47,294 bases of DNA. Origin: Parcubacteria bacterium C7867-007. Its GTDB lineage: Bacteria > Patescibacteriota > Minisyncoccia > Phycocordibacterales > Phycocordibacteraceae. Both the position numbers and the translations under genes were made by a program. Where the stretch lies: the NCBI GenBank assembly GCA_001189195.1, contig LFCQ01000006.1, positions 122,841 through 170,134 on the forward strand, read 5' to 3'. The notes below the pieces were generated by a model, which searched no databases, was not told the DNA's origin, and worked only from the letters and a program-made list of their open reading frames with translations. Positions 14,940-43,680 of the stretch are shown one piece after another (within the stretch, counting starts at the first letter, position 1; each line of letters starts with the position of its first letter).

Positions 14940-14974
14940 GTATTGATTATACAATACGGCGTGTGTTGTAGTCC

Positions 14975-21428: not shown

Positions 21429-21537
21429 CCGGATTGAGCGCTAGTGTTTAGCGTCCGTTTCCCCTCAAAGGGCGATGGGACGCCGAACTAGCGCCAAAAG
21501 AAATGACAGCCGACACTGGTCGGAGTAGTCTTTTAAG

Positions 21538-22779
21538 ATGTCTGATGAATATAAGAATCATCACTACGTTCCGCAGTGGTACCAGAAGAAATTCATGCTC
21601 CCAGGCGAGCACGAGCTATTTCATCTCGATATGAAGCCGGATACCTTTGCCGACCCGCGCGGCATAGTCCATACGAGGAAAGCGGTTAAACGACAAGGTA
21701 GCAAAATGTGTTTTGTCGAAGAGGATCTATACACCACGAGGATTAGGGGCATTGAAACAAAGGATATCGAGAAGCACTTCTTCGGCACTATTGATACAAA
21801 AGGTCGCCCAGCAGTTGAGTACTTCGAGAATTTTGGCTATCCATTGAAAGACTGGGGTACGTCTCTTGAAGACATCATGCGTTATATGAGTACGCAAAAA
21901 CTCAGGACTCCGAAGGGTCTTTCGTTCCTGAGCGAGCAAATTGGTACTTCAGATAGGGACGCAACTCTACGGACGATGCTACGACTCCGGAACATCCATG
22001 GTGCCATTTGGATGGAATGCGTGTGGCTCATCGCTGATGCATCGCAATCGGACACTAAGTTCATTGTCTCCGATCATCCAGTCACGGTATATAACCGTGA
22101 ATGCGGTCCGCGCTCTGATTGGTGTCGCGGGTCGAATGATCCCGAAATATGGCTTCAAGGAACTCACACGGTTTTCCCGCTTTCAATCGACAAGGTGCTT
22201 ATCCTCACGAACCTCTCGTGGGTCAGGAATCCATATCAAAAAGCGACGAACTTCCGACCTAACCCGAATCCTTTTCGCAACGCCATTTTCAAGTTCACTG
22301 ATGTTCAGGTGTTACGGCACTTGAGCGAACAGGAAGTACGCGAGATAAATTTCATCATTAAGAGCCGCGCGGCACGGTACATTGCCGCTGCGAAAGAAGA
22401 ATGGCTCTACCCTGAGCGACATGTGTCAAAATCGAACTGGAATACCTACGGCAATGGGTACTTGCTCATGCCAGATCCGCGCCCAATTCATTGGGGTGGA
22501 ACCATTATGTGGGGTGGTGGTCCAGGTGGATCGGGAGCAATGGACGAATATGGAAGATTGCCAGGTGATCCCGATTTTGAATCGGAAACCAATAAGGGTA
22601 CAGAACATCAAACACTTCCTTGGTTCCAAGGAGAGTTTGCGAATATGATCGGTCCGTATCGACGCGGACGCTCTATGCAAGCATTACAGATGGATAACGA
22701 ACGCGATAGTGACGAATTCCATCAGTATCATCTTGGACTTCAGAAAAAGCGTTACAAGAATCGCAACAGAAAGAACTAA
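21538..22779 (+). CDS. DUF4238 domain protein
   Basis: N-terminal NHHYVPQWYQKKF, DLYT, IEKHFFGTID, FIVSDHPV, VFPLS motifs. Confidence 0.8.
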   Translation: MSDEYKNHHYVPQWYQKKFMLPGEHELFHLDMKPDTFADPRGIVHTRKAVKRQGSKMCFVEEDLYTTRIRGIETKDIEKHFFGTIDTKGRPAVEYFENFGYPLKDWGTSLEDIMRYMSTQKLRTPKGLSFLSEQIGTSDRDATLRTMLRLRNIHGAIWMECVWLIADASQSDTKFIVSDHPVTVYNRECGPRSDWCRGSNDPEIWLQGTHTVFPLSIDKVLILTNLSWVRNPYQKATNFRPNPNPFRNAIFKFTDVQVLRHLSEQEVREINFIIKSRAARYIAAAKEEWLYPERHVSKSNWNTYGNGYLLMPDPRPIHWGGTIMWGGGPGGSGAMDEYGRLPGDPDFESETNKGTEHQTLPWFQGEFANMIGPYRRGRSMQALQMDNERDSDEFHQYHLGLQKKRYKNRNRKN

Positions 22780-22882
22780 CAATTCCTTTCAAGCGAAGCT
22801 GTTTGTCCACAAGTATCCGCGCTTCTCATCTAGCACATGTTTCAATGTATCTATGGTCACCCCCGAAGGGGTAACCGTGGAT

Positions 22883-23032
22883 CTACTTTTTCTTACCTGT
22901 GTCGCCGTATCCCGGCTTGGGGACACGTTCGACGACATGGGTGTTCGGCTGTGAACGAGCTTCCTTCACAGTAGTGAATTCACCTGTCTTCGCATCACGA
23001 CCCTTGAGAGTGGTTTTTGGTTCCTTGCTCAT
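22883..23032 (-). CDS. Small basic protein (49 aa, GRDAKTGEF motif)
   Basis: MSKEPKTTLKGRDAKTGEFTTVKEARSQPNTHVVERVPKPGYGDTGKKK; followed by a cUUCGg-capped hairpin (~22852-22880). Confidence 0.7.
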   Translation of the reverse strand: MSKEPKTTLKGRDAKTGEFTTVKEARSQPNTHVVERVPKPGYGDTGKKK

Positions 23033-23183
23033 GGCAGTCATTGTAGTTGGTTAATAAGTTCGACGTCGACCTCGCCGGGTCTGTAGCAGCAAGAACGTCG
23101 AACCTATTCCTTCAGGAGTGCCCATAGGTACACTGATTTTAAGGAACAATTTGAATATATTTTATCAAGCGTATTGAAAGATG

Positions 23184-24506: not shown

Positions 24507-24525
24507 ATACTTAAGGCACCTGGGT

Positions 24526-26413: not shown

Positions 26414-26644
26414 ATGAAACCATCCAAATTGATGCATGTGATCAGTGTTATAACAGGTTTCGCAGGAGTTATTACGTTTATAGCCATTGGCTTCGCTTCA
26501 TTCGGTAAAGGCGACGAGCTTGTATTTGGCGTTACGAAAATAGATGCCTTGCTCTGTGTTGTGGTTCTTCTACTTATCGCAACCTGGCTCCAGATCGCAA
26601 CCATTCATCACATGATGCTTGAAAAGAAAGGGGAACTTGTCTAA
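26414..26644 (+). CDS. Small 2-TM membrane protein
   Basis: Two hydrophobic helices, His/Met tail (IHHMM); TTGACT...TAAAAT upstream. Confidence 0.6.
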   Translation: MKPSKLMHVISVITGFAGVITFIAIGFASFGKGDELVFGVTKIDALLCVVVLLLIATWLQIATIHHMMLEKKGELV

Positions 26645-26675
26645 GTGATAGACCTGCCCCGTTTCTACAAATAAT

Positions 26676-27308
26676 ATGTGCTTTTCAGCAACCGCGAGTT
26701 TTGTGGCAGGAGCGGCCTTAACTGGTACGGGTGTCCTGACTATCAAAAAGGCAGAAACTAAAGCGGAAATACCTTTCGCCAGTATTCCGTTCTTGTTTGG
26801 AATCCAACAACTTATTGAAGGCGTGGTGTGGTTGTCTTTCGGAAATGCTGCCGTCAACGTTTTGGCCACCTACTCTTTCTCGTTGTTTTCTCACGTACTC
26901 TGGCCGATACTCGTACCGTTCTCTGTCTTGCTACTTGAGACTAATCCCATACGGAAGAAAATCCTATGGATTTTCTCTATAATCGGATTAATCGTTGGAC
27001 TGTACCTCTTGTACTTCATAGTTACCGAGCCAATTACATCTAAGATTGTAAACAGAAGCATTGCCTACAATTCTCCGCATCTTTTCTTGTATCCAATGCT
27101 GTTCTTCTACTTCCTAGCCACCTGCGTGAGTTGTTTCTTCTCAAGCCATAAAATCATTAACCTATTCGGCATAGTCGCACTCGCTTCTGCCGCAATTGCC
27201 ACGTGGTTCTTTACCGAAACCTTCCTGTCTGTATGGTGTTTCTTTGCCGCAATTCTAAGTGTGCTCGTGTATTGGTTCTTTAAAAAGAAACCTACTAGAG
27301 TCTCTTGA
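26676..27308 (+). CDS. DUF6629-type membrane protein
   Basis: MCFSATASF, QQLIEGVVW, SVWCFFAA motifs. Confidence 0.8.
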   Translation: MCFSATASFVAGAALTGTGVLTIKKAETKAEIPFASIPFLFGIQQLIEGVVWLSFGNAAVNVLATYSFSLFSHVLWPILVPFSVLLLETNPIRKKILWIFSIIGLIVGLYLLYFIVTEPITSKIVNRSIAYNSPHLFLYPMLFFYFLATCVSCFFSSHKIINLFGIVALASAAIATWFFTETFLSVWCFFAAILSVLVYWFFKKKPTRVS

Positions 27309-27747
27309 GAATCTCATTCATCTGGTCGATTTCCTGTTGCTGGCTTTCAATAATGCCTTGGCAGAGCTGCTGAATTTCAGGATCAGTGATGTTCGCTTTC
27401 TCGCACATAAGAACAGCACCTGAGTGATGGGGAATCATAGACTGAAGGAAACCCTTATCTCCCACAAAAGTCTGATACCGAATCATCAGGAAGGACACCA
27501 CGAGAACAATTATTCCGATAAGAATCACAAGCTTGTTAAGTTTTTTGTCCTTGTACATCATGCCCATGAGCATCATCTCTAGAATGAGCATCGGCGCGGA
27601 CATCATAAAGCCCATGTACAGGAAATTGATATTCGGAACGGCGTTTGCAAACGTGTTTACCATGGCGAACATAAGGACGAACATGGCGACAACATGGAGT
27701 CCGGCCATGAGGGCTAGTAGCTGGTATGGTGAGTGTTTCATATTCAT
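27295..27747 (-). CDS. DUF305 domain (CopM-like) membrane protein
   Basis: Met-rich 3-TM N-terminus, FLQSMIPHHSGAVLMC, IIESQQQEIDQM; start may be 27741. Confidence 0.85.
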   Translation of the reverse strand: MNMKHSPYQLLALMAGLHVVAMFVLMFAMVNTFANAVPNINFLYMGFMMSAPMLILEMMLMGMMYKDKKLNKLVILIGIIVLVVSFLMIRYQTFVGDKGFLQSMIPHHSGAVLMCEKANITDPEIQQLCQGIIESQQQEIDQMNEILKRL

Positions 27748-27786
27748 AAGTATACCCCGGCCATTTTTATAGAGTACAATTTTCGT

Positions 27787-28122
27787 ATGCTCAGCATACT
27801 TTTCTTAAAGATAGGTCTCGGGGTAACTTTTGTGCTTACAGGCTTGCTAATATTAAGTAGTAAAGATCGGTGGGTACATATGTTGCCAGGGTGGTTCGCT
27901 AGTCGTTTGTCTTCTACGCGTGGTTTTATGATAGTGACTGCTATTGCCGACATTACTCTTGGGGTGTGGCTCTTAACTGGAATCTTTACAGCCATTGCGG
28001 CTATTCTAGCGGCCATACACCTTCTAGGTGTCCTTATAATTTCAGGCAAGCATGAATTCCATGAGGTCTATCGTGACATAGGGCTCTTATTTGCTGCTGT
28101 GGCCTTGGTATTTTCGGTGTAA
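27787..28122 (+). CDS. DoxX-like membrane protein
   Basis: LKIGLGVTFV, DITLGVWLLTG, YRDIGLL. Confidence 0.7.
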   Translation: MLSILFLKIGLGVTFVLTGLLILSSKDRWVHMLPGWFASRLSSTRGFMIVTAIADITLGVWLLTGIFTAIAAILAAIHLLGVLIISGKHEFHEVYRDIGLLFAAVALVFSV

Positions 28123-28154
28123 ATGACTAGAGGAGTCTAGCTACCAGAACCCTC

Positions 28155-28184
28155 TTGATTAGGTATACCCCTTAGGGGTATCAT
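28155..28184 (+). promoter_or_regulatory. csoR-copA promoter with CsoR-type operator
   Basis: TTGATT (-35), TATCAT (-10); palindrome ATACCCC-TTA-GGGGTAT at 28165-28181 matches the C-tract/G-tract CsoR/RcnR operator type. Confidence 0.8.
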
Positions 28185-28190
28185 AAACTT

Positions 28191-28457
28191 ATGAAGTTAG
28201 AAACTAAGAAGCCAATACAGAATCGTCTTCGCCGCATCGAAGGCCAGATCCGAGGCCTCCAAAAGATGGTTGAGGAAGATACGTACTGCATCGACGTCAT
28301 CACGCAGACCTCTGCCATCAAAAGCGCGCTTTCAAGCGTCGAAGATCTGTTGCTTGAGAACCATCTCGATACCTGCGCTTCTGACCAAATGAAATCTGGG
28401 AACGTCACTAAGGCAAAACAAGAGATTCTTGCGGTATATCGGCTTAAACGTAAATAA
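28191..28457 (+). CDS. csoR: Copper-sensing transcriptional repressor (CsoR/RcnR family)
   Basis: [29 protein letters not shown] (C-H-C Cu ligands). Confidence 0.92.
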
Positions 28458-28459
28458 AT

Positions 28460-30754
28460 ATGAACGACTCTCAGACCTACCGTATCAAAGGAATGCACTG
28501 CGCCTCTTGCGCAGGAATCATAGAGCGTACGGTTAAAAAGGTTGATGGCGTAGAACACATTGAAGTGAACTATGGTACTGAAACTGCGAAGATAGCTTTT
28601 GACTCAACGAAAACTGACCCCCATCAGCTTTCAGGCCACATCAAACCACTAGGGTATACGCTAGTCGTACCCACAGCTGAATCAATGGACATGTCTGCGG
28701 ACGAACACGCCTCACATACAGGTCTGAACCAATCGAAGACAGAAAAGCTAGCTGAACTTAAAGAGATGCGATGGAAGATTCTTTCAGTTATACCCCTGGC
28801 AGTTTTCAGCATATTCGTGATGGGTTGGGAAATTCTCGCGCAATTTGGCGTGACAGGAGCTATCCCTGAAATCCTGTACGAGTTCTTCCATCACCTGCTC
28901 CCGATCTTTGCTACATATGTGCTTATAGTAGTCGGACAGCCGTACCTCCTTGGCTTCTACCGCTTCCTTCGCTATGGCAAGGCGAATATGGATACTCTGA
29001 TCGGTATCGGTACCTCCGTTGCCTTCGTGTACAGTTTTATACTTACTGCTTTTGAAGAGCCATTAAGAGCTTTCCTGAACGTCGACCAAACGTATTACGA
29101 TGTAACCATCGTCGTTATCGTGTTCATCGCGCTCGGCAAATATTTAGAAGCTCAGTCAAAACTTAGAACCGGAGACGCAATTGAAAAGCTGCTTGGTCTT
29201 CAAGCAAAGACCGCTCTGGTGATGAGAGACGGCAAGGAAGTCGAAGTGCCAATTGACCAAGTTACCCATGGGGACCTTATCGTCGTGAAGCCAGGCGGCA
29301 AGATTCCGGTTGATGGCGTAATTGTCGAAGGAAATTCGTACATCGACGAATCTATGGTTACGGGAGAACCCATGGCTGTTGAGAAGAAGACTGGAGACAA
29401 TGTGGTCGCTGGAACTCTTAATACGAAGGGCCACTTTGTATTCAAAGCGACTAAAGTCGGCTCTGAAACGCTCCTTGCAAGCATTATAAGAATGGTCGGC
29501 GAAGCTCAAGGCAGCAAGGCACCGATCCAAGGACTTGCCGATAAGATCTCTAGCGTCTTTGTGCCTGTAGTTCTTGTGTTCGCCGTACTTGTCTTTATTG
29601 CATGGCTCGTGCTCGGCATTCCAACACTCGGTCTCGCACAAGCACTTTCTCTCGGCCTCACGTCATTTGTCGGCATTCTTGTTATCGCATGCCCATGCGC
29701 GCTCGGGCTTGCCACACCTATTGCCGTTATTGTCGGTGTTGGAAAGGGAGCCCAGGAAGGCATCCTCATTAAGGACGCGGCAACGCTTCAAAAGCTCAGG
29801 AGCGTAAATACTATTGTCGTAGACAAGACGGGTACGATTACGAAAGGAAAGCCCGAAGTGATTGAGCTACAGACCTTTCAAGGAAAATCAGAGCAGGAAG
29901 TTATGCGTATCCTCGCATCGCTTGAGAGTAAATCAGAGCACCCGCTTGCAAGTGCGATACTCGCGTATGCTGAGGGAAATTCTATTCGTTCGTCCGCCTC
30001 AGAGCAATTCGAGATAATCGAGGGAAAGGGGCTCAAGGGGACGATAGGAAATACCGAATACTTTGCAGGTAACGCAAAGCTTATTAATGATCTCGATATT
30101 CCGTTCGATAGTGGGGTCTTAGCTTCCCATACCAGCGAGGGAAGAACACCTGTCTTTCTTGCTACGAGCAAAGAAGTGCTCGGGCTGGTATTTATTGCAG
30201 ACGCTATAAAGCCTGAAGCAATAGATGCCGTTAAGAGGCTTCATAAGATGGGTATTAAGACGGTCATGCTCACGGGTGATAATCGGCAAGCGGCAGAAGC
30301 GATTGCGAAGCAGGTTGGTATAGACGAGGTCGTGGCAGAAGTCTTGCCAGGAGAGAAGCTCGACAAGATTAAAGAACTCCAAGCAGAAGGCCGAATAGTC
30401 GCCATGGCTGGTGACGGCGTGAACGATGCCCCCGCACTTGCTCAAGCTGACGTAGGTATCGCTATGGGAACGGGTACCGATGTCGCTATCGAAACGGCTG
30501 GCATAACGCTTCTTGGTGGAGACATCGGCAAACTGGTGAAGGCTATTCGACTTTCACGATTCACCATGAACGGAATTAAGCAAAATTTGTTCTGGGCATT
30601 TGCTTACAACATCATCGGTATTCCAATTGCAGCAGGAATACTCTTCCCGTTCTTTGGATTGCTTTTGTCGCCGGTGATTGCGGGACTCGCCATGGCGCTC
30701 TCGAGCGTTTCGGTGGTGCTCAACTCGCTTCGCTTAAAAACTGTAAAACTGTAA
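28460..30754 (+). CDS. copA: Copper-exporting P1B-1 ATPase
   Basis: [39 protein letters not shown] and MALSS TM motifs. Confidence 0.95.
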
Positions 30755-30757
30755 CCC

Positions 30758-31774
30758 ATGGAAACCTATACTTTTCACGTCCAGGGAATGCACTGCAAGT
30801 CTTGCATCGCGCTTACAGAGGGCGAGCTTATGGATCTGCCCGAGGTTACCCACGCGGAGTCCTCGCTTAAAACCCACACGGTTGATGTTGTGGGAGAGTT
30901 TGGTGGACGTACTCAAGACGAGATCGTGGCGTATCTCACCGAACCGCTCAAGAGGCATGGCTATAGTCTCCATCTTGAGAAACAAGCGCATAAGGTCAAG
31001 TGGGCAGACTTTACCTATGCCATACCAGTAGCCGCAGTCTTCATTGCGCTGTTCATCGTTCTACAAAAGCTCGGCATCGTTAATCTGGCTGGTTCTGGGG
31101 AAATGACCTATGCAACCGCGTTTGTCATTGGACTCGTCGCTTCAGTATCGACCTGCATGGCAGTAGTTGGCGGGCTCGTACTCTCCATGTCAGCGAGCTA
31201 TGCAAAGGAAGGACAAGGAGTGCGACCGCAAATACTATTCCATGTTGGCCGTCTCGTATCCTTCTTCGTTCTCGGCGGTGTGATTGGCGCGCTTGGCTCA
31301 GCTTTCCAGCTCGGAGGTACTGGCACATTTGTCCTCAGCTTTATAGTAGCCGTGATCCTGCTCATACTCGGACTTAACCTGCTTGACGTGTTCCCATGGA
31401 CGAAGAAATTGCTACCAACCCTTCCAGCTTCGTTCAGTAAGCATGTTACTCGTTTCAAGGGAGTAAACAGTACGCTTACGCCTCTTCTTATAGGTGCGGC
31501 GACATTCATTCTCCCGTGCGGCTTTACCCAATCGATGCAGCTCTACAGTCTTACGACAGGCAGCTTCCTTCAAGGCGCGCTTACCATGACAGTCTTCGCT
31601 TTAGGAACGCTTCCGATCCTCGCGCTCCTCAGCTTCAGTTCGCTCAGTATCAAGAAGCTGCAGACGGGTGTGTTCTATAAGACGGCGGGGCTCGTCGTTA
31701 TATTCTTCGGACTTTTTAACCTCATGAATAGCTTGGTCGCCGTCGGCCTAATTCCGCCATTATTTAGCTTCTAA
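30758..31774 (+). CDS. HMA domain + DsbD_2/TauE-like membrane protein
   Basis: GMHCKSC; STCMAVVGG; LPCGFTQ; FALGTLP. Confidence 0.88.
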   Translation: METYTFHVQGMHCKSCIALTEGELMDLPEVTHAESSLKTHTVDVVGEFGGRTQDEIVAYLTEPLKRHGYSLHLEKQAHKVKWADFTYAIPVAAVFIALFIVLQKLGIVNLAGSGEMTYATAFVIGLVASVSTCMAVVGGLVLSMSASYAKEGQGVRPQILFHVGRLVSFFVLGGVIGALGSAFQLGGTGTFVLSFIVAVILLILGLNLLDVFPWTKKLLPTLPASFSKHVTRFKGVNSTLTPLLIGAATFILPCGFTQSMQLYSLTTGSFLQGALTMTVFALGTLPILALLSFSSLSIKKLQTGVFYKTAGLVVIFFGLFNLMNSLVAVGLIPPLFSF

Positions 31775-31788
31775 CGTATACTATTCTT

Positions 31789-32178: not shown

Positions 32179-32186
32179 CAAAAAGT

Positions 32187-32636: not shown

Positions 32637-32676
32637 TTACACCGAGTCGTATTGATTAGCGTTAATTTAACTACTT

Positions 32677-33078: not shown

Positions 33079-33095
33079 TTGTAGTTAACAAATGT

Positions 33096-33848
33096 ATGGA
33101 AACAGATAATAAAATAGAAGTCGCATCTGCGCTGAGTAAGTACTCAACACCAATCTCAGTGTTAGTGGGTGCAATTATTATTGCAGCTGCGCTTACTTTC
33201 GGTGATGGAAAACTTCCTCAGCAGGACGTAGCAGCGAATCCAGGCCAGGCCCAGCCAGACGCTGCGGCACTTCAAAAGCAATTAGAAAATATTGCACCTA
33301 TCACTGCTGAAGACCATATTCGAGGGAATCCAGATGCACCTGTAAAAATTGTTGAGTACTCAGATACGGAATGCCCATTCTGCAAGAGATTTCACCCTAC
33401 GATGCAACAAGTAATGAGTGAATATGGTGCAGACGGCAAAGTTGCGTGGGTGTATCGGCATTTCCCTCTTGACCAGCTTCATAAGAAGGCTAGGAAAGAA
33501 GCCATTGCGCTTGAGTGTGCTGGAGATCAAGGTGGCGATGATGCTTTCTGGAAATATACAGATCGACTCTACGAAGTGACACCCTCAAACGACGGCCTTG
33601 ATCCATCGGAACTTCCAAAGATCGCTAGTGAGGTCGGACTTAATGTCACCACCTTCAACACATGTCTTGCAAGTGGAAAGTTCGATGCACATGTTGAAGC
33701 AGACGCACAAAATGCTATTGCAACCGGCGGAAGCGGAACCCCGTGGAGTATAGTTATCGGCAAGAATGGCAAGAAGTACCCACTTTCGGGTGCCCAGCCG
33801 TATGAATCAGTAAAGCAGATAATTGACCTCGCTTCACAAGGCAAATAA
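33096..33848 (+). CDS. DsbA family thioredoxin-fold oxidoreductase
   Basis: GNPDAPVKIVEYSDTECPFCKRFH, YRHFPL, GTP, GAQP. Confidence 0.92.
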   Translation: METDNKIEVASALSKYSTPISVLVGAIIIAAALTFGDGKLPQQDVAANPGQAQPDAAALQKQLENIAPITAEDHIRGNPDAPVKIVEYSDTECPFCKRFHPTMQQVMSEYGADGKVAWVYRHFPLDQLHKKARKEAIALECAGDQGGDDAFWKYTDRLYEVTPSNDGLDPSELPKIASEVGLNVTTFNTCLASGKFDAHVEADAQNAIATGGSGTPWSIVIGKNGKKYPLSGAQPYESVKQIIDLASQGK

Positions 33849-33850
33849 AG

Positions 33851-34393
33851 ATGCTGTTCCAAGCGTTGCAAAAGGTATTGCGGAGGCCGACATACATGCT
33901 ACTTGCTCTGACGGTAAGTCTGGCGGTCTTTGCACTCGCTGTGTTACTGCCAAACGCTAGTTTAATTGGTATCATCGTCAGCTCGCCTAACATATTGCTC
34001 TCCCAAAAGCTTGGAATACCATTTAGTTTGTTAGGTTCTATTATTACTAACTTCACTATCCTTTCTGCGATCTCGACAATTGCTATCGCAACTCTGTTCG
34101 GAATAAATGTTGCCATGGTGCTTTATTTCCTGAGGCGGAAAATTAGCGAAGTAAAGAAGATCGGAATTACTACTGGGTTCTTGGGTGTTACCAGTGGGAT
34201 TATCGGCATTGGATGTGCCGCTTGCGGATCACTCCTGCTTACAAGTATTCTCTCGCTGTTCGGTGCATCAAGCATACTCGCATTCCTGCCCCTCGCAGGC
34301 GGTGAATTCGGTATCCTTGGCGTCATCTTACTCGTGATATCTGCTCACAGTATAGCCAACCAAATCCAGCATCCTGCAATCTGTAAAATTTAA
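33851..34393 (+). CDS. 4-TM membrane protein with CxxC
   Basis: GIGCAACGS motif and C-terminal Cys; 2 nt after dsbA. Confidence 0.7.
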   Translation: MLFQALQKVLRRPTYMLLALTVSLAVFALAVLLPNASLIGIIVSSPNILLSQKLGIPFSLLGSIITNFTILSAISTIAIATLFGINVAMVLYFLRRKISEVKKIGITTGFLGVTSGIIGIGCAACGSLLLTSILSLFGASSILAFLPLAGGEFGILGVILLVISAHSIANQIQHPAICKI

Positions 34394-34402
34394 CTCAACT
34401 AT

Positions 34403-34942
34403 ATGGAAAATAGTCAGCCTAATGAATATGTAAGTAGCAAAGAACGGAGAGAACGTAAACAGCAAGCAAAACTGGAAGCAAAAAATTCAGTGCTTCAAAA
34501 GCGGCGCGCAGCAAAAGTTATCCGATGGATCGGTTGGAGTTTGGTTGGCGCGGCGATTATTGGAAGTTTAGTTTGGTTCGTACTATCCCAGCCTAAGACC
34601 TCTGATTCTGAAATCATCTCTCGCACTGGTATTCACTGGCATCCGGAGCTAGAGATCTATGTCAAAGGCGCGAAGGTGGAATTTCCCGCCAATATAGGCA
34701 TTGGAGTAGCACATCAGCCTGTCCATACTCACGAAGATGCTGTAGAAGGAGTTGTACATCTTGAATTCGAAGGACTAGTTCGTAAAAGCGACACTACGCT
34801 AGGACAGTTCTTTAAGAGCTGGGGCAAAGATATTCGCTCACTTGGAGCGAATGTAACGATGACTGTCAATGGTCAGGAAAATATCGATCTTGAGAATTAT
34901 CAAATGCAGGACAAGGATGAAATTGTGTTGAGGTATGAGTAA
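34403..34942 (+). CDS. Membrane-anchored His-motif protein
   Basis: Basic N-terminus, TM, IHWHP, PANIGI, PVHTHE, VVHLE, TLGQFF. Confidence 0.7.
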   Translation: MENSQPNEYVSSKERRERKQQAKLEAKNSVLQKRRAAKVIRWIGWSLVGAAIIGSLVWFVLSQPKTSDSEIISRTGIHWHPELEIYVKGAKVEFPANIGIGVAHQPVHTHEDAVEGVVHLEFEGLVRKSDTTLGQFFKSWGKDIRSLGANVTMTVNGQENIDLENYQMQDKDEIVLRYE

Positions 34943-35001
34943 TACGGAACGACAATGCTCTCGTACTCCACTGAGTATCAAAACGCTAACAGCTTAAGAA
35001 T

Positions 35002-35778
35002 ATGAAACTGAAAAAGATAGCTTTGATTGGGCTCTTTGTTGTGCTGGTAGGAATTACAGGACTCATGCTTTTACAAAGCATGAAAAGTACTTTGGGAACG
35101 CAAACAGAGTCTCAGACTGAAGATGAGGTTGTTCTGGAAGTACCTGCACAGATAGCCGATCAAGAAGTCTTAATCAGTCGAGTTACGATGCCTAGTAACG
35201 GATGGGTTGTGGCACGGGGTATCGAAGATGGAAAACTCGGTCAGATTATAGAAATAAGCCCGTTTCTTGAAAAGGGTGAGTATAAAAAGGTAATTATTCC
35301 CCTCGGCGAATTCTATAATGGCGAAGAACTCATTGCCGTTATTTATGAGGATCAAAATGCTGACGGTATCTTCAATGGCCTCGATCTCCCCAAACTGGAT
35401 TCAAAAGGTCTTATGATAGCTCGCAGTGTAAAGACCGGAGAAGAAGTCGAAGGTCTTTCTGAGGCAGGTATGAGTGGGATGCTACATAATATGCCTGGAA
35501 TGGCAGACATGATCCAGATTCGATATACGAATACTGGCTTCGTTCCCAAGAATATTGAGGTGCCCGCAGGTTCTCTCGTTGAGTTCATTAATGAAAGTGA
35601 CCGGGAAATGTGGGTAGCATCCGATACTCATCCAACCCATGAACGACTCGCAACGTTCGACCAGTTTAGATCCTATCCTAAAGGCGGAGTGTATCGATAT
35701 CTTTTTGATAAGCCGGGAACCTGGCCGTATCACGATCACATCAGTCCAGCAGATGAGGGGATAATCACCGTACGCTAA
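35002..35778 (+). CDS. Membrane-anchored two-domain protein with C-terminal cupredoxin
   Basis: Met-rich linker, GFVPKNIEV, WVASDTHPTH, FDKPGTWPYHDH. Confidence 0.75.
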   Translation: MKLKKIALIGLFVVLVGITGLMLLQSMKSTLGTQTESQTEDEVVLEVPAQIADQEVLISRVTMPSNGWVVARGIEDGKLGQIIEISPFLEKGEYKKVIIPLGEFYNGEELIAVIYEDQNADGIFNGLDLPKLDSKGLMIARSVKTGEEVEGLSEAGMSGMLHNMPGMADMIQIRYTNTGFVPKNIEVPAGSLVEFINESDREMWVASDTHPTHERLATFDQFRSYPKGGVYRYLFDKPGTWPYHDHISPADEGIITVR

Positions 35779-35846
35779 TAAGCCACGATAATACTTGACT
35801 TTATTACTAAATATGATAAAGTACAATTCAATTAGGATTCTAAGTT

Positions 35847-36458
35847 ATGATTTCCGCACTGAAAACAGTAGGATTCTTTATCCTAACCGCCCTTATCTTC
35901 TTACTGTCATTTGCAGTGCTATTTGCATTTGATTTGGTTCCAGAGAGCAAATCCGAACTTACAGCGAGTGCTGAAAAAGTGGTGGACGTTCCAGCTGTAG
36001 TTGAAAGGGTTGAAGAACCTGCTCGTATCGTTGCTACAGACATTGGGTTAGACGCTTCTATCGTCAACCCGACAAGCAAAGATATAGCCGTGCTGGATAA
36101 AGCGCTCCTCTCAGGAGCGGTGCGCTACCCTGAAACGGCGCTTTTGGGAGAAGATGGGACAGCACTTTTGTTTGGGCACTCCAGCTATCTGCCTTTAGTA
36201 AAAAACAAGAACTATCAAATCTTTAACGATGTTCAAGAGCTTGAGAAAGGCAATATTGTGAGCGTGTACTCAGGCACGCGCGAGTATCGCTACGAGGTGG
36301 TGAGTGTTGAGCAAGCGAAAGCAACAGCTGATCGTATCAATCTCGAACAGAATGGTCGCTTTCTGAAGCTAGTTACATGTAACACCTTCGGTGCGAAAGA
36401 AGATCGGTTTGTCGTGACCGCCAAGTTCGTTGGAGTATATGAAACACAAAGCTCTTAA
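35847..36458 (+). CDS. Sortase
   Basis: N-terminal TM, FGHSS, LKLVTC, R (EDRFVV) catalytic triad. Confidence 0.88.
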   Translation: MISALKTVGFFILTALIFLLSFAVLFAFDLVPESKSELTASAEKVVDVPAVVERVEEPARIVATDIGLDASIVNPTSKDIAVLDKALLSGAVRYPETALLGEDGTALLFGHSSYLPLVKNKNYQIFNDVQELEKGNIVSVYSGTREYRYEVVSVEQAKATADRINLEQNGRFLKLVTCNTFGAKEDRFVVTAKFVGVYETQSS

Positions 36459-36584
36459 CTTTTAAGATATATCTGTGGCGTCGGCAGGTCGGTTTCAAGG
36501 CGGAATCAACTTTGCATATTGAGTTATTAGCTTCTAAAGCAAATAACTAACTCCAGGACGTGTGATACTTTTAGTACGTAATCT

Positions 36585-37457
36585 ATGAACAGACACTCCC
36601 ACGACAGTCAGGGAAACATAAAGATTGCGCTCTTTCTCAATATTGGTTTTACGATTATTGAGCTTATCGGAGGTCTACTTACGAACAGTCTCGCTATACT
36701 CTCGGACGCGCTTCATGACTTTGGAGACACTATTGTTCTCTCGCTCGCGTGGTATGCCGAGAAGAAATCAAAGCAGGGTCCAGACGAGAAGCGCACCTAC
36801 GGGTATGCCCGACTTTCCGTATTCTCCGCACTTGTTTCAGGTGCTGTCCTAATCGGTGGTTCTCTTTTCATCATCTCTCAAGCCATTCCGCGTCTCTTAA
36901 ACCTTGAAGCAGTGAATGCGCCAGGCATGATGGTACTTGCTGTCATTGGAATTATCTTTAACGGCATTGGCGCACTTCGTTTAAAGAAGGGAGAAGGTAT
37001 CAGCGAACGAGTGCTTTCATGGCATCTCTTTGAAGACGTGTTTGGATGGACGGCGATACTTATTGGTGGCGGGTTGATCTATCTCTTCGACCTGCCGATT
37101 CTGGACCCCGTACTCACGATTGGCTTCACGCTCTTTATCCTCTGGGGAGTTATCCGCTCAATGGGAGAAGTGAGCAACATTCTGCTTGAAGGCGTACCGC
37201 AGCAGGTACACCTGAAGGCGCTCAAGACCGACATACTCCAGTTTGAGGGTATACTCGGTCTCCACGATGTCCATGTTTGGTCTCTTGAAGGCAAGACCAA
37301 TGTATTGAGTGGGCATATCATCATAAAGCCGCAGAGCGTTGATGAGGGACGAGCCATACAACAGAACGTAAAAGCCATGCTCAAGGAGAAACACGATATT
37401 GAGCATGCAACGATAGAATTGGAGACCGATGGAAGTTGCGAAGAGAAGAATTGCTAA
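36585..37457 (+). CDS. czcD: Cation diffusion facilitator (Zn/Co/Cd efflux)
   Basis: NSLAILSDALHD, TYGYAR, WHLFED, LLEGVP, HDVHVWSL, HATIELE. Confidence 0.9.
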   Translation: MNRHSHDSQGNIKIALFLNIGFTIIELIGGLLTNSLAILSDALHDFGDTIVLSLAWYAEKKSKQGPDEKRTYGYARLSVFSALVSGAVLIGGSLFIISQAIPRLLNLEAVNAPGMMVLAVIGIIFNGIGALRLKKGEGISERVLSWHLFEDVFGWTAILIGGGLIYLFDLPILDPVLTIGFTLFILWGVIRSMGEVSNILLEGVPQQVHLKALKTDILQFEGILGLHDVHVWSLEGKTNVLSGHIIIKPQSVDEGRAIQQNVKAMLKEKHDIEHATIELETDGSCEEKNC

Positions 37458-37752
37458 GTGCTATTTATAGGCCGTACTTAAGCCATATTCTAGTCCACAT
37501 TTCTTCATAAAAGCATCATTGACCCGCCATTCTCCCACGCTATACTAGTGGAACTGGTTAGATACGGTTGTACTCAAGAAAAGCCTATACAGGCTTTTTT
37601 GTATTATGAAGAAACGCTGAACGTCCCTTTGTTTTCCTATTTTACCTTCCAACTTTTCCACCCGTTCTATAGCTAACGCTAAGAAAAGGGGTACATACAA
37701 AGTTTATGGTTCGGTAGCAGCGGTATTCGCTCTATCTCTTTTTATACATACT

Positions 37753-38739
37753 GTGTCGCCACAGTCCGTGGACAGCGTCTTTCCTTTTCCACATACCGCA
37801 CATGCTCAAGGAGCAGAAGATGTAATCCTCCATGACCCTTCCATAGACCTTCTTGAGGCAGCTATAAACTCTGACCCAAACCCGGATAAGGGTGATCATG
37901 AAATGGAGGTCGCAGGAGGCATGGCGCTTCTTCCACACGGAGACCTTCCCGAAGGCGAAGCTGAAGTTTCAAGCTCGAAAGCTTCTAAACCTAAGAAGAC
38001 AGGTATTGCTATCTACACAGTGCAGGAAGGCGACTCGCTCTCTGAGATTGCTGAAGAATATGGCGTATCCACAAAGACCATTCTCTGGGCGAACGATATT
38101 CGTGATGCAAGCACCATTCGTATTGGGGATGATCTCATCATTCTTCCGGTCTCTGGGGTGCAGCATAAAGTTGCAAGCGGAGATACCCTTCAATCTATCG
38201 CCAAGAAGTATGGCTCTGACGTAAGCGATATTGCGCTCTACAACGGAATAAGCGAGTCCAAGGGGCTTATTGCAGGTTCTGAGATCATCGTACCTGGTGG
38301 TGCATTCCCCTCGGCTCCTTTAAAGAAAGTGGCGAACTCAGCTTCATCTAAGAAAAGCACTCCTGCGGCTAAGTATTCTAGTCCGTCTAGCTCATCAGGT
38401 AAGTTAGGAAACCCACTTCCAGGTGGAGTAATCACTCAGGTAAATCACGGATATAACGCTGTGGACATAGACGGAGAAACTGGAGACCCTATTTATGCTT
38501 CAGCAAGCGGCTCGGTCATCATTGCCAAGGGTGGAGGAGGATATAACGGTGGCTATGGAAATTATATCGTAATTGAGCATGGCGCAGGTGTTCAGACTCT
38601 CTACGCACATATGTCGAGTCTCGCTGTATCAGGCGGAACGGTTGATAAGGGTGAGGTTATCGGATATGTGGGGAACACGGGTAAATCAACGGGCTCGCAT
38701 CTGCATTTTGAAGTCCGCGGAGCAATTAATCCCCTATAA
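37753..38739 (+). CDS. LysM x2 + M23 peptidase (true start probably upstream)
   Basis: YTVQEGDSLSEIA, HKVASGDTLQSIA, HGYNAVD, TLYAHM, STGSHLHFEV. Confidence 0.9.
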   Translation: MSPQSVDSVFPFPHTAHAQGAEDVILHDPSIDLLEAAINSDPNPDKGDHEMEVAGGMALLPHGDLPEGEAEVSSSKASKPKKTGIAIYTVQEGDSLSEIAEEYGVSTKTILWANDIRDASTIRIGDDLIILPVSGVQHKVASGDTLQSIAKKYGSDVSDIALYNGISESKGLIAGSEIIVPGGAFPSAPLKKVANSASSKKSTPAAKYSSPSSSSGKLGNPLPGGVITQVNHGYNAVDIDGETGDPIYASASGSVIIAKGGGGYNGGYGNYIVIEHGAGVQTLYAHMSSLAVSGGTVDKGEVIGYVGNTGKSTGSHLHFEVRGAINPL

Positions 38740-38825: not shown

Positions 38826-39030
38826 TTAGCCAAGACCTAACCCCTAGGATTCCAATCCTAGGATATGGTCGAAAATCCTAGTAGAGATCAAAGGACTCCC
38901 AGTCAGAGTCACTCTACTAGGTCATATCTGGAAACAGGTATGGGTCTGGCCGAAAGGTTGGATCGCGATGGCTGGGAGCCTTTTGATTATCTCTTGGGGC
39001 TCTCTGCTACTTAAAAACCTAGTAGAAAAT
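38826..39030 (+). ncRNA. Candidate structured RNA / 5' leader
   Basis: Multiple stems including an 18-bp helix, two GAAA-tetraloop hairpins and G-U pairs; family not recognised. Confidence 0.55.
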
Positions 39031-39038
39031 AATTACGT

Positions 39039-39518
39039 ATGGATACGCCAACAGCGTCCGCAAAGAAACCTCTTCTTAAGAAGTGGTGGGTCTGGGTACT
39101 TATCGTACTCGGCATCTTTATTATCATAGGTTCGATAGGCGGCTCTGATTCTTCAAGTTCAGGAAGCCAGAGCGCGAAGGAGGAAGTGAAGGTCGAGCCA
39201 GCTCTTACGGTCACGGCTTTCAAAATGGCTGCCGAGTACAAGGAAAACGAAGTCGCTGCAGACGCAAAGTACAAGGGCAAGCTCGTCGAAATATCAGGCA
39301 GCGTAGATACCATCGGCAAAGATGTTCTCGATACGCCGTTTATCGCCTTCTCAACTGAAAATCAGTACGAGATCATCAATCGAATTCAGTGTATGTTTGG
39401 AAAGAACGATGTGGAAGTGCTCTCAAGTGTCTCCAAGGGTCAGAAGATTACCCTTCGCGGTACTGTCTCCGGTGCTCTCGGAAACATCATTGTTAAAGAT
39501 TGCGAAATCATAGAGTAG
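39039..39518 (+). CDS. Membrane-anchored OB-fold protein (tRNA_anti-like)
   Basis: KKWWVW + TM, YKENEVAADAKYKGKLVEISGSV, KGQKITLRG, VKDC. Confidence 0.8.
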   Translation: MDTPTASAKKPLLKKWWVWVLIVLGIFIIIGSIGGSDSSSSGSQSAKEEVKVEPALTVTAFKMAAEYKENEVAADAKYKGKLVEISGSVDTIGKDVLDTPFIAFSTENQYEIINRIQCMFGKNDVEVLSSVSKGQKITLRGTVSGALGNIIVKDCEIIE

Positions 39519-41421: not shown

Positions 41422-42689
41422 ACCTTCACAGCCTTCTGGCCAGTTAGCCTCTCATAGCGGCGAATGATGAGATCTACGAAGATTGGCTCGCGCTCAATCA
41501 GGTATGCAGACCGCTTCAACTGCTCGCACGCAATCAAAAGACTGCCTGAACCACCAAAGCAGTCGAGGATGATGTCAGAGGGCTTGGTACAGCGCCTCAG
41601 CGCCCTCTCATGGAGCACAGGCGGCTTCTCGGTCGGGTGTTGATATCCAGTCCCATTCAGCCGCTTTACGAGCCAGATATCGAGGAGGTCATAGATGTCT
41701 TCAAGAGTCTGATTTCCCGTGCCGATCTCCTTGTTCAGGATTTCGGAGAGATTCAGCACCTTGTCCGAGAGGTACGGCTTGCCGATTGTGCCGTACACGC
41801 ACGGCTCGTACTGCTTGTTGAACGCGCTATGCGGCGTAGGTGAGGAGTTATTCTTAATCCAGAGGCACACCCGCTTGTTCGCGATGCCGGATTCCTGATA
41901 CAGGCTCTGCAAGAGCCAGATGTACCGCTGGTCGCAGTAGGTGAAAACGTGCGCGTCTTTCTTGGTAACAGCAATCGCGTTCTTGAGACAGGAAGCGAGA
42001 AATGCTTTGTATGCCTTGTCGGTGAGGGAATCATCGACAGTGCCGCCATACGACTTCTTGCCGCCTACGCCTTTGTCGTACGAAAGCCCGATGTTGTATG
42101 GCGGGTCGGTCAGGATGGTGTCGGCTTTCTTTCCGGCCATGAGTCGTGCAAACGTATCAGGGTCGGTACTGTCCCCGCAGATGAGACGGTGCGAGCCGAG
42201 CTGGTATAAATCGCCGGTCTTTGCTTTTGGTTTCTTAATCTTTGCTAACTCCTTCTCGACATCAAACTCATCATGCTCGACCTCAAGATCGTCGAAGAGA
42301 TGCGACAGATCGGTATCATCGAAGCCGCTCGCAAGCAGGGTCTCGACATCGAACTCGTCCACGAGTTTTTGCCAGTCCCAGTCTCCGTGGATACGGTTAG
42401 AACCGAGGAGGTACTGGTCGTACTCTTTCTTCGTGAGCTTGCGGTTCGGCACACGGACCGAAATAGTCTCTTTCTCGCGTCCGAGGAGTTTCAAAACCAT
42501 GAGCCGCTGGTGCCCAGCGATCACGGTGTTGTTCTTGTCGATCACAGGAAGTTCTACGAGATCGAACTTCCTGAGACTCTTCTTCAAGTCTTCGATCTGT
42601 TTTGCGCTCATAGTGCGCGGGTTTCTGATATTAGGCACAAGGTCGGCGATCTTGCGGTTCTGGGTAGTCCAGGAGAGTTTTGCTGGCAT
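41418..42689 (-). CDS. ParB-like domain + N6/N4 DNA methyltransferase (beta order)
   Basis: NPRTM...IAGHQR (ParB-like), HRLICGDST, TDPPYN, HPTEKP, LDCFGGSGS. Confidence 0.92.
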   Translation of the reverse strand: MPAKLSWTTQNRKIADLVPNIRNPRTMSAKQIEDLKKSLRKFDLVELPVIDKNNTVIAGHQRLMVLKLLGREKETISVRVPNRKLTKKEYDQYLLGSNRIHGDWDWQKLVDEFDVETLLASGFDDTDLSHLFDDLEVEHDEFDVEKELAKIKKPKAKTGDLYQLGSHRLICGDSTDPDTFARLMAGKKADTILTDPPYNIGLSYDKGVGGKKSYGGTVDDSLTDKAYKAFLASCLKNAIAVTKKDAHVFTYCDQRYIWLLQSLYQESGIANKRVCLWIKNNSSPTPHSAFNKQYEPCVYGTIGKPYLSDKVLNLSEILNKEIGTGNQTLEDIYDLLDIWLVKRLNGTGYQHPTEKPPVLHERALRRCTKPSDIILDCFGGSGSLLIACEQLKRSAYLIEREPIFVDLIIRRYERLTGQKAVKV

Positions 42690-42849
42690 ATGAGTAAAAT
42701 GATGAATAAGCAGATTGCTCTGTACATCCAGCAAACCAACAATTTCATTTGCTCGACACGCCCGTTATCGTGAACGGAAAGAGAAATACCGCTCGTAATT
42801 GAGCCGTATTTCAAATCTTATCCACCGTCACGATGGCGTCCGGATGGCC

Positions 42850-43494
42850 TTAGGTGCGATGGATGAACACTTCGGGATTTAACATGTATCCAGATCCGCG
42901 ACGAGCGATAACAATCCGCTCCTTAATACCGAGCTGCTTCCTTGCCTCACCGTTGATGCCTTGCACCATCTTTCGTATAGCGTCCGTGCTATTACGACCG
43001 AGTTCTTCTCTCAGAGTTTCGGTAGCTATAGGCTGACGAGCACTCATTAGACGTACAAAGAGCCGTCTTCGCCCCTTGTCTTCAAACGCATATACGCGCC
43101 GCACATTAGAAACGGTCTTGGAAAGAATGGCCTGACGAGCATCAAAGGTGAGATCCGTGTCGGGAATCCGTACGGTTGTCACCAACTTAGCAGCTGTTAC
43201 CTCTGGCTTTGATTCAACCTCGGTCTGGGTAAAGATTCTGCTAGGGTATTCAACCGTTGGAATTGAATAGAAGCTCACCGACTCTCGCAGACGAGCCATT
43301 GTCTCAAGGGTAGGCCGCATAGACTCTGCCAAAGCCTGTATTGTTTTAAACATTGGCGCATATGACTCATTTATACGATCAGCTAGCTGGGTCATTTGGG
43401 CTATTGCCGGGGCAACGCGCATCATCGCTCGCTGCTGCTCTTCAAAAGCTCGCGCGAGGCTATTCTCGGAGATGGTTAGTAATGCGCCTGTCAT
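42850..43494 (-). CDS. Hypothetical protein with C-terminal winged-HTH (OmpR/PhoB-like)
   Basis: ETLREELG...AIRKMVQGIN...IVIARRGSGYML; helical low-complexity N-terminus. Confidence 0.6.
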   Translation of the reverse strand: MTGALLTISENSLARAFEEQQRAMMRVAPAIAQMTQLADRINESYAPMFKTIQALAESMRPTLETMARLRESVSFYSIPTVEYPSRIFTQTEVESKPEVTAAKLVTTVRIPDTDLTFDARQAILSKTVSNVRRVYAFEDKGRRRLFVRLMSARQPIATETLREELGRNSTDAIRKMVQGINGEARKQLGIKERIVIARRGSGYMLNPEVFIHRT

Positions 43495-43653
43495 ACCTAA
43501 ATATTACGCTACATAGTGGGGATAGGGCAACGAATGTAACGCGTACAAACTGGCCCTTTGGTGTTACATTTTATATCAATGAGGAACCCGTCCGACCCCC
43601 ATCGTTTTGCCGAATCTCAGATTAGCCGTAGGGCCCTTGTGGGGCTTGGTATC

Positions 43654-43680
43654 CTGGGGTTCTAGTCCGACCCTGCCCGC
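43654..43680 (+). repeat. Degenerate tRNA-Ser 3'-end copy (possible attR)
   Basis: ctggggttctagtccgaccctgcccgc versus cgggagttcgaatctccccctctccgc (21403-21429), 18/27 identical ungapped by hand; followed by hairpin ~43692-43719. Confidence 0.4.

Follow-up and report, generated by a model that had tools for sequence, protein, structure and literature searches.

Herein, an integrated genomic island carrying phage-type DNA packaging genes is described from a 47,294-nucleotide stretch of Parcubacteria bacterium C7867-007 (contig LFCQ01000006.1, positions 122,841 to 170,134 of the forward strand), which is called the window below. The host genome, G000, is 702 kb long in 8 contigs and is 99% complete. 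As judged from homology, the island is located at 21432-43681 of the window, where its 22,250 bp lie between a tRNA-Ser gene and host genes. Its backbone is identified from gene order as a co-oriented set of a small regulator, a methylase with a ParB-like domain (ParB-methylase), the small (TerS) and large (TerL) terminase subunits and a large serine integrase, to which an S24 repressor is often added in relatives. Because this layout is that of the control and packaging region of a temperate phage joined to an integrase, with no recognized virion-building or replication genes, the island is read as a new class of helper-dependent, satellite-like integrative element that brings its own terminase. 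The chances for and against this reading are judged to be about equal.

The boundaries were determined by comparison with relatives of the same genus. The closest related element was found in genome G065 (locus L026), likewise downstream of the FtsZ and TrxB genes. Homology to the integrase-distal end of that element begins at 21432 (in G065 just beyond the integrase gene), and on the right side homology begins sharply at 43681, both in blastn and in the alignment with L026. The element is therefore placed at 21432-43681, within 2 nt of the bounds 21430-43680 proposed by an earlier reading made from the letters alone (the sequence-only reading). The last base of the tRNA-Ser gene, 21430, is the point where the nucleotide homology of all six genus relatives ends, and none of the six has an insertion at the corresponding site. 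In these relatives FtsZ-TrxB is followed, after 2-4 kb, by tRNA-Ser-tRNA-Glu-tRNA-Val and then by the genes found at 13-18 kb of the window; the distance from TrxB to tRNA-Ser is 23.6 kb in the window. The empty site in genome G063 shows the tRNA-Ser gene followed at once by a homologue of the host methyltransferase-like gene at 44085-44669 of the window. The region is missing from the site in the six relatives, so it is not a syntenic core region. No long direct repeats that could serve as attachment (att) sites flank the element, as is expected with a serine integrase. A 16-nt repeat at 21333 and 24783 was tried as an att site and was within chance expectation by our own estimate.

Recurrence of the element was measured through TerL. 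A scan of one genome per species (185,579 species) matched 195 loci, of which the best 80 were kept; together with 5 loci from IMG/VR they form a set of 85 loci, with TerL 52-82% identical to that of the window. A metagenome scan gave at least 553 relatives, and 80 contigs were kept for examination. The resulting 165 loci were all found through TerL searches, and relatives of the host genome carry Patescibacteria or Candidate Phyla Radiation (CPR) labels in public records. TerS was present in 84 and the ParB-methylase in 80 of the 85 loci, always in the same order and on the same strand. An integrase homologue lies within 10 kb in 63 loci, and in 59 an integrase of at least 50% identity follows TerL on the same strand, with a gap of less than 300 bp in 26, 0.3-1.5 kb in 12, 1.5-5 kb in 9 and at least 5 kb in 12. 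In 12 of the 26 loci with no downstream integrase, the sequence ends less than 3.2 kb beyond TerL. Of the 80 metagenome contigs, 75 carry TerS, 69 the methylase and 45 the integrase. These data support the finding that the family consists of widespread integrative islands of CPR/Patescibacteria, with the same gene order in dozens of independent genomes. In the literature searched (supplementary tables excluded), no island with methylase, TerS, TerL and serine integrase is described in CPR or elsewhere, and the family is apparently undescribed.

The control genes at the head of the operon vary. A repressor with LexA_DNA_bind and Peptidase_S24 domains is divergent from the operon in 34 of the 85 loci, an arrangement that would be a phage-type switch. 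The first operon gene encodes one of several unrelated small proteins: a 136-aa family (c5) in 24 loci, a 286-aa family in 8, and the winged-helix family of the window, which takes the same place upstream of the methylase in 9 other loci. The window copy has the winged-helix regulator and the integrase and no divergent repressor. A minimal case is contig L109, whose 7.4 kb hold only the methylase, TerS, TerL, the integrase and tRNA-Asp.

A TerL search in 60 genus relatives gave strong matches in three genomes, G005, G003 and G017. All three show the order (methylase)-TerS-TerL, then 7-10 kb of opposite-strand genes and a serine integrase, with unrelated cargo in each: helicase-like AAA_11/AAA_12 proteins in G005, a 1,994-aa PPDK_N/PEP-utilizers protein in G003, and an Eco57I-type methylase, an SNF2/PLD helicase and an insertion sequence (IS) in G017. 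The G017 element (L015, 421-1272 and 3412-4224) has a 391-aa TerL open reading frame (ORF) that matches only query residues 17-294, and the IS in its cargo carries an rve integrase core; judged by its sequence, it is probably a decaying copy. An IMG/VR locus with 49% identity, L114, holds two tandem TerL paralogues of 563 and 532 aa at 3035-6318, both matching phrog_38, in the order ParB-methylase, methylase, TerS, TerL, second TerL, serine integrase.

Variants without TerL were also found in the genus, so that the family as outlined by the sequence-only reading is to be widened, on gene content, to include them. Modules of LexA-like protein, ParB-methylase and TerS with the structured RNA LOOT occur at L118 (G062:C40:1-12200), L129 (G031:C1:34000-46200) and L130 (G018:C25), and no TerL is detectable in them by the family HMM. 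The order in G062 is LexA-like gene, methylase, TerS, then LOOT, cargo and an integrase 68% identical to that of the window; in G031 it is LOOT, methylase, TerS.

A tRNA-Ser gene points at the integrase end in 11 loci, among them L030 and L059, where only 115-122 bp separate it from the integrase gene upstream. Other loci have tRNA-Asp, Glu, His, Gln or Trp at this end. A CTAG-centered palindrome (e.g. TCGTGCTAGCACGA) stands beside tRNA-Ser in 7 of 11 other ends compared and is absent from all six empty sites in the genus; the window end has a related GCGCTAG hairpin. From these gene positions, the insertion site of the family is taken to be a tRNA gene's 3' end, frequently that of tRNA-Ser, and its cargo slots are placed after TerL and after the integrase.

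The backbone genes of the window were verified by Pfam, PHROGs and Atlas, and all of the genes listed in the sequence-only reading (winged-helix regulator, ParB-methylase, TerS-like, TerL, Cys-rich 79-aa ORF and serine recombinase) are at the places it gave (Table 1). The methylase and TerS frames overlap by 4 nt and the TerS and TerL frames by 23 nt; this overlap of TerS with both neighbors suggests translational coupling. The integrase has the three domains expected of the large serine recombinase family (PF00239 7e-18, PF07508 6e-15, PF13408 4e-8) and is distantly CcrB/XisF-like, below the NCBIfam cut-offs. A promoter and terminator scan of the backbone gave nothing above shuffled expectation. 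The claim that the Cys-rich 79-aa ORF belongs to the backbone did not hold: searches of the 85 TerL loci, the 80 metagenome loci, L111 and the stretches from six genus relatives gave no homologue at E <1. The ORF is therefore specific to the window copy, and its candidacy as a recombination directionality factor of the family was rejected on the same result.

TerL is well conserved in its catalytic positions. The Walker A (FRGSGKS) and Walker B (DLIICDD) motifs and the nuclease residues D320, E387, D454, D455 and D458 do not vary in an alignment of 22 sequences and are among the 99 positions that reach at least 98% conservation across 82 sequences; both Walker motifs align to T7 gp19 (PDB 4bij). 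Non-synonymous and synonymous differences (pN/pS) between the window and G065 are 0.122/0.776 for TerL, 0.140/0.634 for TerS, 0.030/0.563 for the methylase and 0.070/0.751 for the integrase, compared with 0.146/0.763 for host FtsZ and 0.203/0.787 for host TrxB. The corresponding ratios are 0.16, 0.22, 0.05 and 0.09 for the four backbone genes versus 0.19 for FtsZ and 0.26 for TrxB. No relaxation of selection on TerL is visible in this comparison, which was one of the checks proposed with the sequence-only reading. On these alignments TerL is judged to have intact catalytic motifs and to be under purifying selection like FtsZ, and the terminase looks functional.

Genes for virion building, replication and conjugation were searched in the window and its relatives. 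Among 30 ORFs at 21538-47275, no portal, capsid, tail, primase/Rep, relaxase or type IV secretion system (T4SS) family was matched with Pfam, PHROGs, PADLOC and NCBIfam, which bears out the gene absences given in the sequence-only reading. Pfam and PHROGs also gave no tail, holin or endolysin family in the element, where the only cell-wall hydrolase is a cargo LysM-M23 peptidase, and no gene of integrative and conjugative or mobilizable elements (relaxase, coupling protein, T4SS) was found among the ORFs scanned with Pfam, PHROGs and NCBIfam. Beside TerL proteins of 49-85% identity, no portal or capsid gene was recognized in the 85 genome loci, 7 IMG/VR contigs or 80 metagenome contigs, as the proposed check of TerL neighborhoods had asked, and no conserved portal- or capsid-sized cluster lies near TerL in the 85 loci. 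In the 165 loci, 148 same-strand ORFs of at least 250 aa start within 6 kb after TerL; 80 are integrases, 5 match other window proteins and 63 remain. A PHROG scan of 10 of these 63 gave helicases, methylases or unknowns and none structural; the 10 include all ORFs of at least 250 aa that start less than 300 nt from the TerL end, minus three homologues of scanned ones. At the genome level, 50 carrier genomes including G000 were scanned: the HK97 capsid family PF05065 matched 2 of them, Phage_portal (PF04860) matched 4, of which 3 were above cut-off, and SPP1_portal (PF05133) matched none. None of the three families matched anywhere in G000 in this HMM-based scan, for which matches were obtained in known lysogens as controls.

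A life cycle can be proposed from this architecture. The backbone operon would be derepressed, in many members through RecA-stimulated self-cleavage of the S24 repressor and in the window through the winged-helix regulator, and the integrase would then excise the island. The island's own TerS and TerL would recognize and cut island DNA and pump it into procapsids of a co-infecting CPR phage. In the next host the methylase would protect the island DNA and the integrase would re-insert it at the tRNA site. TerS-only relatives would redirect the terminase of the helper, and TerL-bearing members would bring the whole enzyme. While the architecture, the recurrence, the insertion polymorphism, the selection on the backbone and the lack of recognizable virion genes are observed, we infer induction, packaging and helper dependence. 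By analogy, the gene similar to phage superinfection-exclusion proteins (Sie-like) beside TerL and the defense cargo of the family would be typical of prophages and satellites.

Several results weigh against the satellite-like reading. No helper phage, excised form or packaged DNA was found in phage records, IMG/VR, Logan contigs or the 80 metagenome contigs. A capsid or portal gene is recognizable in only 2-4 of the 50 carrier genomes; resident prophages are therefore few, and helpers would have to be exogenous. Out of 692 matches in 50,697 phage records, the closest phage TerL is 23-27% identical, and a profile scan of 2.9 million IMG/VR contigs gave 9 TerL relatives, 7 of them at 49% identity or more. 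These seven contigs are short, and where their sequence continues past TerL it repeats the capsid-less arrangement; the two scans thus gave no phage whose packaging machinery is related. In the single sequencing run holding G000, no excised circle, attP junction or empty-site form was seen in Logan contigs, in which rare forms are invisible. A contig of that run bridges the integrated junction (21399-37163), and loose contig ends near tRNAs apparently come from tRNAs of other organisms. Terminal repeats, indicative of circular contigs, were present in 0 of the 80 metagenome contigs. No primase, helicase or Rep family was found in the window backbone or in the conserved clusters c4, c5, c9, c10 and c17; PICI, P4 and PLE satellites do have a replication module. 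No headful constraint is visible, since the TerL-integrase distance runs from less than 0.3 kb to about 15 kb. The Pfam and PHROG models could miss divergent CPR virion proteins, and the synonymous sites of TerL and the integrase are saturated like those of host genes, which possibly fits long residence as well as transfer. From the sequence-only reading, the proposal of a class of CPR integrative element with its own terminase thus stands as a recurrent class, and its packaging or translocation part, through helper capsids, is left with no helper, circle, attP or particle DNA found.

Other explanations put the terminase to a different use. The module may be kept for interference or addiction and not for island transfer, which we consider rather unlikely. 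As interference, TerS and TerL would compete with invading phage DNA or cut it, so that packaging interference acts as defense; as addiction, a nuclease-ATPase with a methylase would stabilize the island like a restriction-modification pair, and the island would move rarely, via the integrase. This would suit a cargo that is mostly defense and resistance (type I and III restriction enzymes, Eco57I-type methylase with SNF2/PLD helicase, ThsB TIR, SNase, Sie-like gene), the lack of a helper or packaged form, and the presence of the same locus in two species with saturated synonymous divergence of TerL and the integrase. The methylase is also the most conserved backbone gene (95% identity, pN 0.03) and always lies directly upstream of TerS-TerL; a methylase directly upstream of terS is, however, the ordinary layout of a phage packaging module. 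A PADLOC scan of the element matched the methylase alone, with no model for TerL, TerS, the integrase or the regulator. The TerL-less variants keep TerS and the methylase, which fits packaging redirection better than a nuclease-methylase pair, and both the LexA-type switch and the tight linkage with a tRNA-site integrase belong to a mobile life cycle. In a capsid-free transfer, by contrast, the terminase would excise, linearize or translocate island DNA for export or release, and uptake would proceed by competence or type IV pili, by cell contact or by vesicles. The absence of recognized virion genes beside this TerL clade in the 85 genome loci, 7 IMG/VR and 80 metagenome contigs points this way, as do the identity of only about 25% to any sequenced phage TerL, the 46-48 of 50 carrier genomes with no recognizable capsid or portal gene and the unconstrained element sizes. 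It is nevertheless held to be improbable: to our knowledge all TerL proteins characterized so far act on a procapsid capped by a portal, no other conserved docking partner lies next to TerL, the backbone has no membrane or secretion component, and the existence of TerL-less variants indicates that TerL is not the essential transfer engine of the wider group. Taken more broadly, the islands might form a self-contained class of CPR element and not parasites of tailed phages, in which one operon excises, cuts and drives DNA with no virion or acts as a methylation-guarded addictive nuclease. A terminase outside a capsid context could be envisaged, as the clade was seen only beside integrase or cargo with no recognized portal (85 of at least 195 genome loci and 80 of at least 553 contigs examined), and this broader alternative is thought unlikely, if less so than either form of it given above.

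Two further explanations stay closer to ordinary phages. The island could be what is left of a temperate CPR phage after loss of the structural, lysis and replication modules, with packaging genes and integrase left beside later cargo. The order regulator-methylase-TerS-TerL followed by integrase and att could be drawn as a siphovirus map with everything between TerL and the integrase deleted, and decay is seen in G017, with its shortened TerL ORF and IS in the cargo. A one-off stripped prophage, the alternative named in the sequence-only reading, does not account for a gene order that recurs in dozens of genomes with TerL under purifying selection. The same layout is found in 59 of 85 loci over many CPR lineages, with the integrase directly after TerL in 26; no intact relative with portal or capsid was recognized among the 85 loci, the 7 and the 80 contigs; and the backbone is under purifying selection as strong as FtsZ, with catalytic residues all kept. 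The remnant is accordingly given a slim chance. It is scarcely credible that the element is a complete virus whose capsid and portal genes are too divergent for Pfam and PHROG models, even though CPR phage proteins are poorly represented in libraries and family-less ORFs exist (a 458-aa protein and ORFs of 149, 180 and 179 aa in the window; clusters c5, c9 and c17 elsewhere). The 458-aa protein, the sole unexplained window ORF of capsid or portal size, is Cys-rich and charged, with zinc-ribbon and HTH-like leads in Atlas. Minimal members leave no room for such genes, as in the 7.4 kb of L109 or where a tRNA closely follows the integrase in L059 and L030. In several loci TerL is immediately followed by a conserved ORF of 302-317 aa, which is the target of a diversity-generating retroelement (DGR), and no unknown cluster is conserved across the family except small regulators.

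Table 1 Features of the island and its borders in the window.
Feature	Position	Strand	Description	Evidence
tRNA-Ser(CGA)	21342..21430	+	Intact host flank of integration site	ARAGORN, Rfam tRNA
Left end	21432..21500	.	Imperfect hairpin/palindrome with GCGCTAG from 21432	G065 homology
DUF4238 protein, 413 aa	21538..22779	+	Slot between left end and integrase	PF14022 1.1e-15
Large serine recombinase (integrase), 440 aa	23184..24506	-	Resolvase + Recombinase + Zn_ribbon_recom	phrog_95 1e-62
Cys-rich ORF, 79 aa	24526..24765	-	19 nt upstream of integrase gene	No family
Cys-rich (zinc-ribbon-like), highly charged protein, 458 aa	24913..26289	+		No Pfam, PHROG, PADLOC or NCBIfam match
Copper/metal and envelope cargo	26414..38739	+ (one DUF305 -)		Pfam
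LOOT RNA (Rfam RF03000)	38834..38964	+	Model positions 1-121	cmscan 77.5 bits versus gathering 46.4
tRNA_anti-like (OB-fold) protein	39039..39518	+	Like phage superinfection-exclusion proteins	PF12869 1.3e-22; phrog_8545 2.6e-25
TerL, 505 aa	39519..41036	-	Large terminase subunit	phrog_38 2.7e-75; Terminase_6C; TIGR01630 above cut-off
TerS-like small HTH protein, 135 aa	41014..41421	-		PHROG terS families 4044 and 309, 2e-8
ParB-like domain + N6/N4 DNA methyltransferase, 438 aa	41418..42734	-	ParB-like N-terminus	phrog_498 9e-98; phrog_620 2.4e-24 (N-terminus); PF01555 (N6_N4_Mtase); PADLOC MTase_II
DNA-binding protein, 214 aa	42850..43494	-	C-terminal OmpR-type winged helix; first backbone-operon gene	Atlas structure match Trans_reg_C
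Right-end non-coding region	43495..43681	.	Two GGTCGGAC motifs	About 79% identical to G065 element

The main cargo occupies 14,606 bp at 24913-39518 and is all on the plus strand except a DUF305 gene at 27295-27747, in agreement with the roughly 14.6 kb of mostly plus-strand cargo first reported. From 26414 it encodes, in order, a 76-aa ORF, DUF6629, DUF305 (minus strand), a DoxX-like protein, CsoR, the CopA P-type ATPase, HMA-DsbD_2, a cupredoxin, a second DUF305, a DsbA-like thioredoxin, two unknowns, a DUF7282-cupredoxin, a sortase, a CDF transporter and the LysM-M23 peptidase. ORFs of 149, 180 and 179 aa in the window gave no family match. Homologues of the 458-aa protein occur in 12 of the 85 loci, and Atlas gives it only weak HTH_17 leads with a score of 0.78. 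The DUF4238 gene, which is missing at the same position in the G065 element, is extra cargo and, on this comparison, like the 79-aa ORF not part of the family backbone. The Sie-like gene abuts TerL in convergent orientation, and members of its cluster occur in 22 other loci, where they typically come next to TerL's end, on the opposite strand.

Related cargo was seen on other contigs. Metagenome contig L133 (1-12056) carries a TerL 85% identical to that of the window and then the window's copper cargo in the same order (CopA 85%, DsbD_2 88%, DsbA-like 85%), with the CDF transporter missing. The cargo of L030 at 14490-16826 includes a 65%-identical homologue of the 790-aa gene at 313-2685 of the window, which in the window lies outside the element. 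Cargo clusters across the loci include CopA, CsoR, multicopper oxidase, DNA methylases, ResIII, type I HsdR, ThsB TIR, SNase and reverse transcriptase with bAvd; restriction enzymes of types I and III, a Thoeris TIR and DGRs are thus represented. A DGR directly follows TerL in L075 at 11613-14528 (also in L096, L101, L107, L108 and L202), with a 317-aa target gene, bAvd and reverse transcriptase. At the end of the 317-aa ORF of L075 stands a repeat of 131 nt, and a second copy with 86% identity lies 519 nt further downstream; the two form a pair of variable and template repeats.

The relation of the window element to that of G065 was further compared with the relation of their hosts. The methylase is 95%, the integrase 91% and TerL about 80% identical, versus 80% for FtsZ and 71% for TrxB, and the methylase pS is 0.56 compared with 0.76-0.79 for the host genes. 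The higher backbone identity, the lower methylase pS and the copper cargo on the independent contig L133 are possible signs of transfer. A recent date for the transfer does not follow from synonymous divergence: only the methylase pS is clearly lower, and TerL and the integrase are saturated.

A LOOT RNA lies 74 nt upstream of the Sie-like gene in the window. A covariance model built in this analysis from 11 copies found LOOT in 38 of the 85 TerL loci and in G005, always 0.1-6 kb after TerL. In 33 of the 38 loci a same-strand gene starts within 3-400 nt; 15 of these genes are Sie-like, and the others are of various kinds, nucleases among them. Because a same-strand gene starts so near in most copies, the position of LOOT suggests a cis-acting 5' leader of a variable accessory gene and not a free-standing small RNA. 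An exclusive association with the window TerL clade was rejected, as 15 of 41 genus genomes carry LOOT, some with no TerL of this kind. The LOOT contexts examined in the genus are mostly related methylase/TerS/integrase elements, and the one in G015 has a 22%-identical TerL.

The ends of the element and the flanking DNA show additional features. The GGTCGGAC motif was considered as a family-wide pac or operator site and rejected; it occurs in only 15 of the 85 loci at scattered positions and is therefore not conserved. Just left of tRNA-Glu/tRNA-Ser, a 250-aa gene at 20382-21134 (minus strand) has no homologue in 40 other genus genomes, and the tRNA cluster therefore has variable DNA on both sides. 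A 94-aa ORF of no family at 43729-44013 (minus strand) and a GC-rich hairpin at about 43690-43720 are found at 43.69-44.0 kb, outside the element homology, between the right end of the element and the conserved host methyltransferase-like gene. The two are missing from the G063 empty site and may represent a small insertion of their own.

CPR/Patescibacteria account for a large part of bacterial diversity and have tiny genomes and few known phages, and we know of no conjugative plasmids in them. The family bears on the question of how these bacteria exchange adaptive genes, with metal resistance, restriction, Thoeris-type defense and DGRs as accessory genes that differ between close relatives. 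If the satellite-like reading is correct, a full terminase and methylase with no capsid or replication genes would be a new architecture, and a hidden pool of CPR helper phages would be implied. If the islands are not satellites, theirs would be the first terminase working outside a virion; a capsid-free class would mean that a terminase has a non-virion function and that ultrasmall bacteria possess a native vehicle for gene transfer. Genetics in cultivated Saccharibacteria could draw on the compact serine integrase, on the tRNA site at which it attaches and perhaps on a pac site, and the family gives a genomic context to the orphan LOOT RNA. We regard the element as a new class within a known kind, the helper-dependent integrative elements, with a real chance of being further from known systems.

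Among known systems, temperate Caudoviricetes with integration of the phiC31/Bxb1 type share with the family the methylase-TerS-TerL order, a LexA/CI-type S24 repressor in many members and a large serine recombinase. They differ from the window element in portal, capsid, tail, lysis and replication genes, none of which is recognized in it, and in the family the integrase often directly follows TerL. Islands of the SCCmec type are like the window element in that a large serine recombinase moves cargo into a specific chromosomal site. SCCmec-type islands are not known to have terminase or packaging genes, and they insert in orfX/rlmH and not at a tRNA 3' end.

Phage-inducible chromosomal islands of the capsid-forming type (cf-PICIs) are described as integrated islands that encode TerS and TerL, with a helper supplying the rest of the virion, in which they resemble the window family; unlike it, they encode the major capsid protein, portal, protease and head-tail connectors (PMC10085698). 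The cf-PICIs also have a primase-replicase, and none is recognized in the window element; the family in turn is set apart by the large serine integrase, the ParB-methylase and CPR hosts. Tycheposons are defined by a clade-specific tyrosine recombinase and a replication module at a tRNA (10.1101/2020.12.28.424599). The window element shares tRNA integration with them, but its recombinase is of the large serine type and no replication gene is found. The EPIPs of mycobacteria carry several genes for head and tail along with TerS and a serine integrase (PMC12822802).

The closest general resemblance is to satellites that carry TerS only. PICIs and SaPIs, PICMI, VEIMEs and PICI-like tycheposons are like the window family in site-specific integration, often at a tRNA, and in having a TerS able to redirect packaging, accessory and defense cargo and no virion genes, and they differ from it by mostly tyrosine integrases, by replication modules with autonomous replication and by the absence of TerL (PMC9618062; 10.1101/2020.12.28.424599). 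The window family adds the ParB-methylase and TerL, has no recognizable replication gene, and carries a much larger cargo (about 16 kb including the DUF4238 gene). Classical PICIs and SaPIs have a divergent, repressor-controlled switch, to which the LexA/S24 repressor of 34 of the 85 family loci is comparable. The TerL-less methylase-TerS variants in G062 and G031 are the family members most like TerS-only satellites, and by analogy they may be placed beside them.

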